Virus record (IMG/VR): IMGVR_UViG_3300044801_000195
Coordinates: 1-60,175 of that record
Direction: 5' to 3' (one strand)
Origin: a virus
Lineage: Duplodnaviria; Caudoviricetes
Length of the DNA: 60,175 bases
Shown here: positions 36,415 through 52,082 of the stretch, in pieces
Numbering within the stretch: the first letter of the stretch is position 1
Layout: each line of letters starts with the position of its first letter
Made by a program: the position numbers and the translations under genes
Notes under the pieces: generated by a model
What the model was told of the DNA's origin: nothing
The model's input: only the letters and a program-made list of their open reading frames with translations
The model's database searches: none

Positions 36415-36728
36415 TGGCAACCGCTTACGAAATCCCGCTGCAGGCCAGCGCGCAAACCTTCGTCATCCAGCTCGCCGGCGTCACTTATGGCATGACGCTG
36501 CATTGGTGCGACCCGAACCAGACCTGGATTCTCGACATTGCCGATGGCGACGGTAACGCGCTGGTTCAGGGCATCCCGCTCGTGACCGGCGCGGATTTGT
36601 TAGCGCCCTATGGCTATCTTGGTTTCGGCGGCTCTCTTTACGCGCAGACCGATTACGACACGTTCGCGCCGCCCACCTACGACAACCTCGGTTCCGCGGG
36701 CCACCTCTACTTCGTGACCAATCCATAA
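36414..36728 (+). CDS. Baseplate plug-like protein
   Basis: EIPL, WILDI.D, GIPLVTGADLL..Y.YLG. Confidence 0.8.
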   Translation: MATAYEIPLQASAQTFVIQLAGVTYGMTLHWCDPNQTWILDIADGDGNALVQGIPLVTGADLLAPYGYLGFGGSLYAQTDYDTFAPPTYDNLGSAGHLYFVTNP

Positions 36729-37687
36729 TGAGCGATCTTTACCTCCGCAAGGTGGGCCTCGCGGTTGTCATGGGCCAGAAGGCGCTCGATCTTTCGCAGA
36801 TGCGGATCGTGTTCCGCACACAAGCGGCGGATGAAGGCGCCCCGGCGACGGCGCATATCAAGGTCTACAATCTGAGCGATCACACCGCGCAATCGGTGCA
36901 GAAGGAATATCAGAGCGTCACCCTGCAGGCCGGTTACGAGAACGGGCCTTATGGGCAAATTTTCAATGGCACCATCGTCCAAGTCAAGCGCGGGCGGGAA
37001 ATCGGGGCCGGCGGCGTTGTCGATACTTATGTCCAGATCGACGCCGCCGATAGCGACATCTTCCATAATTTCCAGCTCATCAACGGAGTCCTTGCCGCCG
37101 GAGCGACCAAAGCGCAGCAAGCGCAGACCCTGGCCACGCAAGCCCAGCAAAACAAGACGCTGACGGATGCGAAGCTCGAAGCGCTCAAAAATCAGACGTC
37201 GCCAACGGGCGGCGTTCTGCCCCGCGGCAAGGTGCTGTTCGGCATGGCGCGCGACATCCTGGACGATCTCGCGGCCTCGACGGGCACGGCATGGAGCATT
37301 CAGAACGGCGTTCTCACGTTCCGCGGCCTGACCACATACGATCCAGGCGACATCGTGGTGCTGACGGCCAAAACCGGCTTGATCGTCGTTCCCGAGGCAA
37401 CCGACAACGGGATTAGGGTGCAGACCCTGCTCAATCCGTTTCTCCAAATCGCCCGCCGGGTGCAAATCGACAACAAGTCGATCAATACGACGGCGCAGCA
37501 TGCCAATTTCGGGCTCCAATATCAGGGCCTCAATTACATCGCGACCACGAACGACGACGGCATCTACCGCATTCTGGTTGTCGAGCATGCCGGGGATAGC
37601 CGCGGGCAGCAATGGCAGACCGATCTGGTTTGCCTGAATGTCGATCCGAGCTCCGCGCCGGCGAAGGCCGTGAAGGCTTACGGGTAA
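36728..37687 (+). CDS. Baseplate hub protein
   Basis: A.IKVYNLS..T, LQAGYE, PRGKV.FG, WSIQNG, TGLI..P, DGIY..L...H.GDSRG..W. Confidence 0.85.
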   Translation: MSDLYLRKVGLAVVMGQKALDLSQMRIVFRTQAADEGAPATAHIKVYNLSDHTAQSVQKEYQSVTLQAGYENGPYGQIFNGTIVQVKRGREIGAGGVVDTYVQIDAADSDIFHNFQLINGVLAAGATKAQQAQTLATQAQQNKTLTDAKLEALKNQTSPTGGVLPRGKVLFGMARDILDDLAASTGTAWSIQNGVLTFRGLTTYDPGDIVVLTAKTGLIVVPEATDNGIRVQTLLNPFLQIARRVQIDNKSINTTAQHANFGLQYQGLNYIATTNDDGIYRILVVEHAGDSRGQQWQTDLVCLNVDPSSAPAKAVKAYG

Positions 37688-37756
37688 CTCTGTTTTCAGA
37701 TTTTATGCGTATTGAATTGATGGTCTTAGCCAGAATGCGTAAACCTAGCAATGCGC

Positions 37757-37825
37757 GGCCAGGCGAGGCGCGGCGGGGTCAGGCGCGGCATGGCGTGGCT
37801 AGGCGAGGCAAGGGGCCGTATGGCC
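37757..37825 (+). ncRNA. GGY-NN pentamer array (11 units) with 3' GGCC-GTAT-GGCC hairpin; candidate VIPR-like guide RNA
   Basis: ggcCA ggcGA ggcGC ggcGG ggtCA ggcGC ggcAT ggcGT ggcTA ggcGA ggcAA at 37757-37811; intergenic, directly upstream of a RAMP-like gene. Confidence 0.8.
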
Positions 37826-37844
37826 AATTAATATGGAGGCACCA

Positions 37845-38006
37845 GTGGAAGTAATACGCAAGTATCGCATCACAATAACAGGAAGCCAGCCACTATTAAT
37901 GCATGCCGACGATATCGAATGGGCCGATCAGATGGACGCCTGGAAAGCAACCGCTGACAACAAGAAAACGGGGAAAGCGGGTGACGACCGGTCGCCCGCA
38001 TGGCGC
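37845..38006 (+). pseudogene. 5' fragment of a Cas7/RAMP-like (Vipr-like) protein; the frame runs on antisense to another gene until 38216
   Basis: GGAGG RBS then GTG; YRITITGSQPLLMH resembles the first strand of RAMP/Cas7-like phage proteins; sequence after SPAWR is the reverse strand of the neighbouring gene. Confidence 0.65.
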
Positions 38007-38333
38007 TTGCAGGCCCGGATTGGCGTTCAGCCAAACAAGCGTTTGCTTGAAAATGCAACCTTCAAGAGCGGGATAAGTCGCATTCGCGACGCATCTGGCC
38101 TTGAGCCAATCTGGCGCAAGCTTCCACTGCACCCGGATATTTGCAACCTGCTCGGCGAATTCCCGCTCGTTGCATTGCCGATCCGCGTCGCACAGCATGT
38201 CCGGAGAATTTGGTAGCACCGGCAGGCCGGGCGAAAGTTTCGCCGCTGGGGCGCGCACGGACACATTGCTCTGCGCCCAAGCGCCCTGCCCCAACAAAAA
38301 TGCCAGCAATATCGCGGCTGCATAACGGCACAT
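37896..38333 (-). CDS. Secreted Cys-containing protein (moron); native C-terminus probably lost near 38000
   Basis: MCRYAAAILLAFLLGQGAWAQ signal peptide; paired Cys; convergent overlap with the RAMP-like fragment. Confidence 0.55.
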   Translation of the reverse strand: MCRYAAAILLAFLLGQGAWAQSNVSVRAPAAKLSPGLPVLPNSPDMLCDADRQCNEREFAEQVANIRVQWKLAPDWLKARCVANATYPALEGCIFKQTLVWLNANPGLQAPCGRPVVTRFPRFLVVSGCFPGVHLIGPFDIVGMH

Positions 38334-38578
38334 GACGCTCTCCATTAACCATTTGTAAACTCCCGAAGCGGTGCCCCCGCACGCTGGCGCTGTCCACCGC
38401 GCTCCGGTTGCAATCCGCATAATTTCCGCGTTTTCCGCATGAAATCGGCCACGTACCGCATAAAAGGAGGCCCCGATGCTCGAAACCGTCCTTTTCACCC
38501 ACGCTGGGACCGCCCTGCTTGTCATCAAGATTCTGCTCACTTTTCTAACGCTGCCGCTGGGGCATTGAGTGTTGCGCC

Positions 38579-39232
38579 TTGGATAGACGCGAGCGCTTCG
38601 ACAACCCCACCGTCGCACTGCGCGCGGCGCTCAGGGGCTGGCAAACCCAGATCTGGACGGCGCTGCCCGCCATTTTCGTGGAGCCCGGCAAGGGCGTGCA
38701 AACCGCGAAGGTGCAGCCCGCGATCCAGGCTCAGCAGCGCGACCAGGCCGGGAACTGGACCCCAGTGACGATGCCGCTATGCGTCGATTGCCCAATCCTG
38801 TTTCCAGGCGGCGGCGGCTTCCAGCTTACTTTCCCGCTGGCGGCGGGCGACGAAGGGCTGCTCGTCTTTTCCGCGCGCTGCATCGACGCCTGGTGGCAGT
38901 CAGGCGGCGTGCAGCCCCAAGCCGAGGTCCGGATGCACGATCTGAGCGACGGCTTCTTCATCCCCGGCCAGCTCAGCCAGCTCAAAGTGCCCTCGGGCGG
39001 TTATAGCGCCACCAACGCGCAGCTCAAAACGGCGGGCGGCGCGGTGCTGTTCGACCTCACGCCCACGAAGATCGTTATCAACGCCAATGTGGACATCGTG
39101 GGCGCGCTGACGGCCACCGGCAATGTTACCGCGGGTAAGGGCGGCGCGGACCAGATCACCTTGCAGGGCCACCTCCATGGCGGCGTCAATACGGGCGGCG
39201 GCAGCAGTGCGCCGCCGACAGCGGGGACATGA
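38579..39232 (+). CDS. Baseplate spike (Gp138-like)
   Basis: IWTALPA, VQPAI, TFPL..GDE.L.VFS.RCID.WWQSG, RMHDLSDGF, metal-binding HLH tip. Confidence 0.9.
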   Translation: MDRRERFDNPTVALRAALRGWQTQIWTALPAIFVEPGKGVQTAKVQPAIQAQQRDQAGNWTPVTMPLCVDCPILFPGGGGFQLTFPLAAGDEGLLVFSARCIDAWWQSGGVQPQAEVRMHDLSDGFFIPGQLSQLKVPSGGYSATNAQLKTAGGAVLFDLTPTKIVINANVDIVGALTATGNVTAGKGGADQITLQGHLHGGVNTGGGSSAPPTAGT

Positions 39233-51893: not shown

Positions 51894-51904
51894 TCGGTTG
51901 TTTC

Positions 51905-51955
51905 ACTGTTTCGCCGTTTCCGGCTCATCAGGCAGGGCGCGCACCCTGCGACAGT
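51905..51955 (-). ncRNA. Canonical type III hammerhead ribozyme
   Basis: ACUG-UC GCAGGG UGCGCG CCCUGC CUGAUGA GCCG GAAA CGGC GAAA CAGU: full core, three stems, GUC cleavage site (C at 51950). Confidence 0.95.
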
Positions 51956-52082
51956 ATTTGTTTTCCGGTGAGGCCGGTTGGCCTTCCATCGGAGCTCTAC
52001 CCTCCGATCCTCTCACCATGGGCTTCCCGGTCTGGTTTGTTGGCTCCTGCCACGCTCCCCTCGCCGCCCTGTCTGTAGGATT

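Follow-up and report, generated by a model that had tools for sequence, protein, structure and literature searches.

The window analysed here, the whole of a 60,175-bp stretch, is a complete viral record from a phage of ~60% GC, and the sequencing runs listed as holding this phage are peat metagenomes, with no RNA run among them. Between the baseplate hub gene and the spike gene lies an insert that contains a guide array, a structured tail, the remnant of a vipr gene and a convergent ORF (Table 1). The array opens with the pentamers GGCCA GGCGA GGCGC GGCGG GGTCA GGCGC GGCAT GGCGT GGCTA and closes with GGCGA GGCAA, and its variable dinucleotides (NN) run in the order CA GA GC GG CA GC AT GT TA GA AA. 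Periodic GGY-NN units had been noticed here in an earlier description made from the letters only (the sequence-only reading); they are present as described, and the nine units delimited there are the first of 11 exact ones. Two degenerate pentamers immediately upstream, AGCAA and TGCGC, keep the register of the array and may be genuine units.

The periodicity was detected by Tandem Repeats Finder (period 5, 12.2 copies, 37753-37813) and by pattern counts. A four-unit GGCNN pattern allowing at most one mismatch fitted 13 places in the window, 10 within the array, compared with a mean of 2.64 and a largest count of 9 in shuffled sequence (13 was reached in 0/100 shuffles). A six-unit pattern occurred seven times on the forward strand of the 60-kb genome and not on the reverse, and its backwards control had no match. 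According to an array caller, this is the sole GGY-NN array in the genome.

Relatives of the phage were sought with the hub protein, which recovered just four loci, all distant (41-49% identity). In each of the four, the next ORF begins 6-55 nt past the end of the hub ORF or overlaps it, and the insert is therefore absent from them; none carries an array at the hub locus. The closest phage isolates, which are Burkholderia phages, share <50% sheath identity, and no sheath match at 1e-30 was found in 301 sampled alphaproteobacterial genomes; none of five further genomes matched. Rfam returned no family for the whole window at the gathering threshold. Searches of the three ORFs across the array region against Pfam and PHROGs yielded nothing significant (best phrog_4652, E 0.018), and the convergent ORF matched no Pfam and no PHROG entry.

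Table 1. Features of the insert and the array (positions in the window)
Feature	Position	Strand	Basis
~890-bp insert, baseplate hub gene (36728-37687) to spike gene (38579-39232)	37688..38578		Pfam, PHROGs
Two degenerate 5' units, AGCAA and TGCGC, in array register	37747..37756	+	sequence reading
vrRNA guide region, 11 exact GGY-NN pentamers	37757..37811	+	sequence, Tandem Repeats Finder, pattern counts
Nine units of the sequence-only reading; 1-8 read HEAGHAIV and 9 reads Y with a 1-nt skip	37757..37801	+	pattern searches
Last two units, GA and AA, probably scaffold-biased	37802..37811	+	349 relatives' arrays; L129
vrRNA 3' tail: GG, hairpin (stem 37814-37817, loop 37818-37821, stem 37822-37825), A	37812..37826	+	folding prediction; relatives
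vipr gene remnant, 54 N-terminal codons; GGAGG ribosome-binding site at 37835-37839	37845..38007	+	alignment to relatives
Continuation of the broken + reading frame, without relation to Vipr	38008..38213	+	protein and DNA alignment
Convergent ORF, 145 aa, signal-peptide-like N-terminus, several cysteines	37899..38333	-	ORF call; signal peptide by eye

Assignment of the array and the adjacent ORF to VIPR

VIPR (Viral Interference Programmable Repeat) systems, as set out in the available text of bioRxiv 10.64898/2026.04.26.720920, combine a ~20-kDa Cas7-like protein, Vipr, with vrRNAs of ~100 nt that co-purify with it and in which a structured tail follows 9-16 GGY-NN repeats; the NN bind double-stranded DNA, and one target base per unit, usually at the wobble position, is skipped. 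The array, with 11 tandem GGY-NN units of variable NN, lies within this range, and a structured tail follows it directly, in the form of a hairpin and not of the SUSP1 pseudoknot. GGY-NN arrays were found at 78 of 80 viral loci (L127-L206) that encode relatives of the array-adjacent ORF. The relatives' arrays lie just upstream and/or downstream of the gene; 349 unique ones share its strand and 4 are antisense to it, and the NN are hypervariable across the 349. A full-length relative (P0004) matched 123 phage records end to end at ~26% identity, one of them from an E. coli phage with the SUSP1-type layout, in which a small gene lies downstream and two arrays stand on either side. The family profile had a sole PDB hit, 36pp, 'SUSP1 Vipr protein' (E 7e-14), and an AlphaFold model of the family (pLDDT 76, pTM 0.74) resembled Cas7/Csm3 RAMP chains (28 hits at E<=0.001). 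Because arrays accompany the family at nearly all of its loci, the relatives' tails covary (see below), and the P0004 matches, the PDB hit and the Cas7/Csm3 fold agree, the array is almost certainly a vrRNA and the adjacent ORF is a vipr gene, here truncated.

A protein-binding or structural repeat that regulates the downstream ORF, with no guide function, was considered as well, either of the TRAP type, which we take the 11 triplets with 2-nt spacers to resemble, or as a G-quadruplex. The position of these triplets just upstream of a ribosome-binding site would suit such a role, but the array family co-occurs with Vipr homologues, has hypervariable NN and shares a tail, and the folding energy of the array is ordinary (z = -0.61). 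We find this explanation scarcely credible, and it was dropped, the array being linked to Vipr and matching published VIPR.

A perfect hairpin of >=4 bp stands directly 3' of 157/349 relatives' arrays, compared with 22 in shuffled tails, and 40 distinct stem arms occur among these hairpins. This covariation supports a structured tail, whose predicted form is the same as in the window. GG directly follows the array in 283/349, and the final NN is AA (134) or GA (83) in 217/349; for the penultimate NN the counts are 72 (AA) and 57 (GA), and among interior units the frequencies of AA and GA are 8.0% and 7.5%. A remnant upstream of vipr at locus L129, itself not called as an array, likewise ends in the units GA and AA next to the tail. 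Given this bias and the last units shared by L129, one or both of the units nearest the tail may belong to the scaffold and not to the freely variable guide. At L129:2340-2500, where vipr is intact, the last two units and the tail upstream of the gene are nearly identical to those of the window and the rest is degenerate. In the SUSP1-type E. coli phage, the final NN of the four arrays are AT (three) and GT (one), and the tail-proximal unit therefore looks partly fixed within each clade.

The vipr gene of the window is broken. Only residues 1-55 of the 123-aa array-adjacent ORF (P0001) align to the family, whose members have ~200-216 aa, and DNA similarity to relatives runs through codon 54 and ends at 38007, beyond which the + frame is unrelated. 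In place of an intact gene for a ~20-kDa RAMP, 54 codons are left; the array is therefore a solo vrRNA, and the locus is a VIPR remnant, not a complete system. Another feature of VIPR is an accessory gene, vap, beside vipr; in the window, the DNA past the breakpoint bears no relation to that of the relatives. Since the cognate vipr is truncated, the phage would be unable to use the guide alone. The junction is unchanged in contigs of runs X1 and X2, which are possibly the source samples and not independent. The ATG start of the relatives' vipr aligns with an ATA at 37854-37856, and the frame in the window opens upstream, at GTG 37845 or ATG 37833. The last ~36 codons of the convergent ORF run antisense across the vipr remnant, and the 3' end of this ORF may likewise stem from rearrangement.

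With vipr gone, the array could be a relic that has had no function since the deletion and whose code records a past target, a reading that is compatible with the explanation preferred below and that we regard as quite possible but less likely than not. It would account for a vipr gene of which 54 codons remain, joined to sequence without relation to it, for the absence of a consensus sigma-70 promoter upstream of the array, and for the finding that the 60-kb genome holds no second vipr copy and no other array. Against a relic, all 11 units are still GGY and the tail hairpin is intact; moreover, the available text of bioRxiv 10.64898/2026.10.15.759431 describes solo vrRNAs as widespread in vipr-null phages (346 Enterobacteriaceae phages) and reports that satellite-borne solo vrRNAs act with the Vipr of a helper phage. 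As no consensus promoter lies upstream, transcription of the array from the tail operon is a guess only.

The guide code and the M41 zinc site

HEAGHAIV is the HEXXH motif through which AAA+/M41 (FtsH-type) peptidases bind zinc. The sequence-only reading had recognised this motif in the array by taking each NN as codon positions 1-2 and inserting one skipped base after it. When the GGY of each unit is replaced by a single wildcard, the units give CAnGAnGCnGGnCAnGCnATnGTnTAn(GAnAAn), and the translation was reproduced for units 1-8; the entire guide reads, as codons, (H/Q)(D/E)AG(H/Q)A(I/M)V(Y/stop)(D/E)(K/N). Pairing two bases and skipping one, which that reading had proposed from the array itself, is also the rule published for VIPR (available text of bioRxiv 10.64898/2026.04.26.720920).

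The wildcard form of the guide pattern, CAnGAnGCnGGnCAnGCnATnGTnTAnGAnAA, was searched in sequence collections. The eight-unit core had at least 119 matches (a lower bound) in viral contigs, compared with 25 and 27 for two shuffled-unit controls in which the same units were reordered, which amounts to an enrichment of at least 4.4-fold over these two controls. The excess over shuffled NN that the sequence-only reading had expected was thus found. Among the 119 viral matches listed, 107 encode HEAGHAIV and 4 encode HEAGHAMV, the other 8 being H/Q or D/E variants; since 111/119 listed matches encode HEAGHA[I/M]V in frame, the skipped base coincides with codon position 3, the wobble position, where it had been predicted to fall. 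Most of the listed matches sit in open frames of 430-770 aa. Pfam searches of ten pattern-bearing ORFs identified AAA + Peptidase_M41 in three (L281, L072 and L060), a weak M41 match below the cut-off in four, no match in two and a HAD-phosphatase-like domain in one (L276). In alphaproteobacteria, the exact core was present in 12/121 genomes, with 0 for the backwards control, and 10 of these 12 read HEAGHAIV.

The HEAGHAIV reading, with its skipped base at the wobble position, is real, enriched and probably meaningful, and the guide code is likely to derive from an M41-type gene. As a rough estimate, a random guide would give such a motif reading in <1% of cases. The reading also has precedents in the available text of bioRxiv 10.64898/2026.10.15.759431: one SUSP1 vrRNA is directed at the active-site codons of a recombinase, and wobble alignment is seen in nearly 90% of the vipr-targeting orphan phage vrRNAs.

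Six viral contigs with a GC content of 0.57-0.66 (L060, L079, L080, L083, L085 and L089) bear HEAGHAIV in AAA+/M41-like or short M41-like ORFs, and on this ground phage-borne FtsH-like genes exist in GC-rich phages. These six match the guide at only 16-18/22.

Search for a full-length target

No exact match to all 11 units was found in the viral contigs, in 185,579 species genomes (one for each species) or in 241 million metagenome records. The window holds no self-match at <=3 mismatches, in agreement with the sequence-only reading, which had seen none by eye. Only 4 of the at least 119 viral core matches continue exactly with unit 9 (Y). Nine exact units were found in 14 contigs of species genomes, close to the rough expectation of about 17, of which 6 encode HEAGHA[I/M]VY and 8 are not HEXXH; among metagenome contigs the corresponding number was 34, of which 23 encode HEAGHA[I/M]VY and two are the same contigs as viral matches. 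Ten units matched exactly in L219 (21/22) and in L281 (20/22). L219, the best match, lies in a 129-aa ORF with no Pfam match, from a Firmicute of 34% GC, and the L281 gene encodes AAA + Peptidase_M41 in DNA of 42% GC. Together, 26 of the 29 HEAGHA[I/M]VY matches from genomes and metagenomes lie in DNA of 29-46% GC. Since their GC is low compared with that of the 60%-GC peat phage, the organisms of the best matches are unlikely partners of this phage. The HEAGHA[I/M]VY cases of higher GC (19-20/22) are L208 (0.58), L213 (0.71) and L276 (0.65), the last of which (20/22) is HAD-like by Pfam and not a peptidase. Wobble-aligned matches in M41-type genes reach 18-21/22, none of them 22/22 and none in a demonstrable rival or host.

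The tail-proximal end of the guide departs from the usual peptidase sequence. The sequence-only reading had cautioned that the flanking units differ from the usual FtsH context, and this caution holds: the guide continues Y-(D/E)-(K/N), whereas FtsH-type sequences mostly have G or A after the V of the motif, so that usual FtsH mismatches the guide exactly at its tail-proximal end. FtsH-typical flanks were not found on both sides of the motif, and the eight tail-proximal units alone had 10 viral matches, fewer than the shuffled controls, with a best score of 19/22 and none of them HEXXH. Cryo-EM intermediates described in the available text of bioRxiv 10.64898/2026.04.26.720927 suggest that the guide engages first near the tail and then progressively in the 5' direction, and mismatches at the tail end should therefore be harmful.

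These results bear on the possibility that the vrRNA is real and the HEAGHAIV motif coincidental, the true target being a different rival-element sequence outside the sampled collections, or there being no target. The motif was read post hoc; the viral, genome and metagenome collections contain no full-length match, the three tail-proximal units fail to extend the motif, and in such large databases chance alone readily yields the 80% NN identity published as the criterion for a target, as the 8/14 nine-unit genome matches that are not HEXXH illustrate. On the other hand, the sixteen informative bases of the core exactly spell a universal catalytic motif in its most frequent form, the core is enriched over both controls with its listed matches overwhelmingly in frame (111/119), and the backwards controls gave 0/121 genomes and, with 11 units, 2 places against 18 (see below). 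Coincidence is on balance rather unlikely.

FtsH degrades lambda CII, and the guide could in principle silence the ftsH gene of the phage's own host, for example stabilising a CII-like lysogeny factor. In its favour, the exact HEAGHAIV core occurs in 10/121 sampled alphaproteobacterial genomes, and when all 11 units were searched with <=3 mismatches in 401 alphaproteobacterial genomes, 18 places were found, compared with 2 for the control, about six of them ftsH-like, at 19/22. However, no match of >=20/22 was found in these 401 genomes, usual FtsH has G or A and not Y after HEAGHAIV, which places its mismatches at the tail-proximal end, and the phage is without an intact Vipr; furthermore, the natural targets named in the available published text are mobile elements and host REP decoys and not essential host genes. 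We consider silencing of the host's own ftsH very improbable.

The alphaproteobacterial search proposed in the sequence-only reading thus bore out the core, with exact matches in 12/121 genomes against none for the backwards control, but did not extend to near-complete matches. Its suggestion that the target is a host ftsH-like gene or a rival's peptidase gene was upheld as to the M41 class, the motif being enriched and found in Pfam M41 ORFs, but not as to a particular gene, with no exact 11-unit match and none of >=20/22 in the alphaproteobacterial sample. Any named target gene for the guide is an unproven candidate.

Targets within the VIPR family were also sought. Compared with the vipr genes and arrays of the 80 relatives, the guide scored at best 18/22, antisense in the L196 vipr, where codon position 1 is the one skipped; this candidate was rejected as chance, 2/100 shuffles reaching 18. 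When 284 relatives' guides were compared with the phage genome, the highest identity reached 0.89, compared with 0.83 for shuffles of that guide, and the other top scores were at or near those of shuffles, so that none of these guides stood out. None of the relatives' guides resembles that of the window (best 0.75 over 6 units).

Proposed action of the guide and comparison with known systems

The explanation that we prefer, and that we hold to be somewhat probable as a whole, is that the locus carries a solo VIPR guide whose HEAGHAIV code was selected against an M41-type peptidase gene, which it would silence by means of Vipr supplied in trans. The array belongs to a VIPR cassette inserted after the baseplate hub gene and before the spike gene of this 60-kb peat myophage, and a rearrangement at 38007/38008 took away all but 54 codons of the gene for the Cas7-like RAMP Vipr. 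The solo vrRNA, if transcribed, would be usable only with Vipr from a co-infecting or resident relative, or would already be a relic. Once loaded, the guide is expected to assemble Vipr into a helical filament along its 11 GGY units; in VIPR, each protomer binds one GGY, and each NN pairs with two target bases, every third being skipped. Such a filament would bind double-stranded DNA encoding HEAGHAIVY(D/E)(K/N) in an AAA+/M41-type gene and block its transcription. The most likely target would be an M41-type peptidase gene that continues with Y-(D/E)-(K/N), on a rival mobile element or in a host, and this gene could not escape by synonymous change, or without damage to the active site of its product.

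A broader form of this idea, in which a phage lacking vipr uses a solo vrRNA against the invariant AAA+/M41 zinc site to turn a rival's Vipr, over a wide range of hosts, on the essential host ftsH or on FtsH-like phage genes, appears quite improbable. The exact eight-unit core reading HEAGHA[I/M]V is shared by at least 111 diverse viral contigs and by ~8% of the sampled alphaproteobacterial genomes. If this broader form were true, the vrRNA would poison cells in which a rival expresses VIPR, or would shift protease-controlled lysis-lysogeny decisions, and no vrRNA before it would have been directed against an enzyme motif conserved universally and not against a particular mobile element.

Among known systems, the locus has close parallels with VIPR type II of Escherichia phage SUSP1, as described in the available text of bioRxiv 10.64898/2026.04.26.720920 and 10.64898/2026.04.26.720927 and in PDB 36pp. 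Both have a guide of GGY-NN pentamers numbering 9-16 (11 here), followed immediately by a structured 3' tail, and an adjacent gene for a Cas7-like Vipr, both are phage-borne, and in both the NN, with one skipped base, fall on codon positions 1-2. In contrast to SUSP1, the tail is a short hairpin and not a pseudoknot, the protein identity is ~26%, the arrays of most relatives directly follow vipr, the cassette lies within the tail-gene operon and vipr is truncated here.

The locus also resembles the solo vrRNAs of VIPR-null SUSP1-family phages and F5 satellites (available text of bioRxiv 10.64898/2026.10.15.759431) in that a tailed vrRNA has been kept after deletion of vipr, would rely on the Vipr of another element and has a predicted footprint that is wobble-aligned on a conserved coding segment. 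It differs from them in clade, in its peat habitat and in the deletion itself, which left 54 vipr codons. The solo guides in that text aim at vipr, other vrRNAs, satellites and host REP elements, whereas the guide of the window reads a peptidase zinc site; a term search of two VIPR main texts found no mention of FtsH or peptidase targets, and supplementary lists could differ.

With the crRNA-Cas7 backbone of class 1 CRISPR, as far as the available published text describes it, the system shares one RAMP protomer per repeat period and periodic pairing gaps imposed by the thumb, and the fold matches of the family are type VII Cas7 and type III Csm3. Unlike class 1 CRISPR, it lacks CRISPR repeats, spacers and adaptation genes, and its period is 5 nt in the guide and 3 nt in the target, compared with 6 and 6.

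VIPR systems and solo vrRNAs are already published, and because the system is known and the target is unproven, what the locus adds is modest. New are a peat-phage clade with a hairpin-tailed vrRNA, a second, independent vipr loss that leaves a solo guide, and a predicted target class, the peptidase zinc site, with a code that lands exactly on the catalytic HEXXH. A guide matching HEXXH fits the idea, present in the available published text, that wobble skipping pins targets at unchangeable positions, and if an FtsH-type target were true, VIPR guides could be aimed at a whole gene family and not at one rival.

Two minor observations were made outside the insert. In a local scan, a type III hammerhead ribozyme (RF00008) was matched at 51903-51957 on the - strand with 45.1 bits (gathering score 48.5; E 1.7e-8), a match that falls below the threshold used for the whole window and has no GGY-NN array nearby; hammerhead-interspersed vrRNA arrays have been reported for VIPR in the available text of bioRxiv 10.64898/2026.04.26.720920. 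In runs from peat and pond, record 2 of run X1 and records 5-6 of run X3 matched 22-34 nt of the array region with a few differences, and these partial matches are probably other vrRNA arrays from the same habitats.
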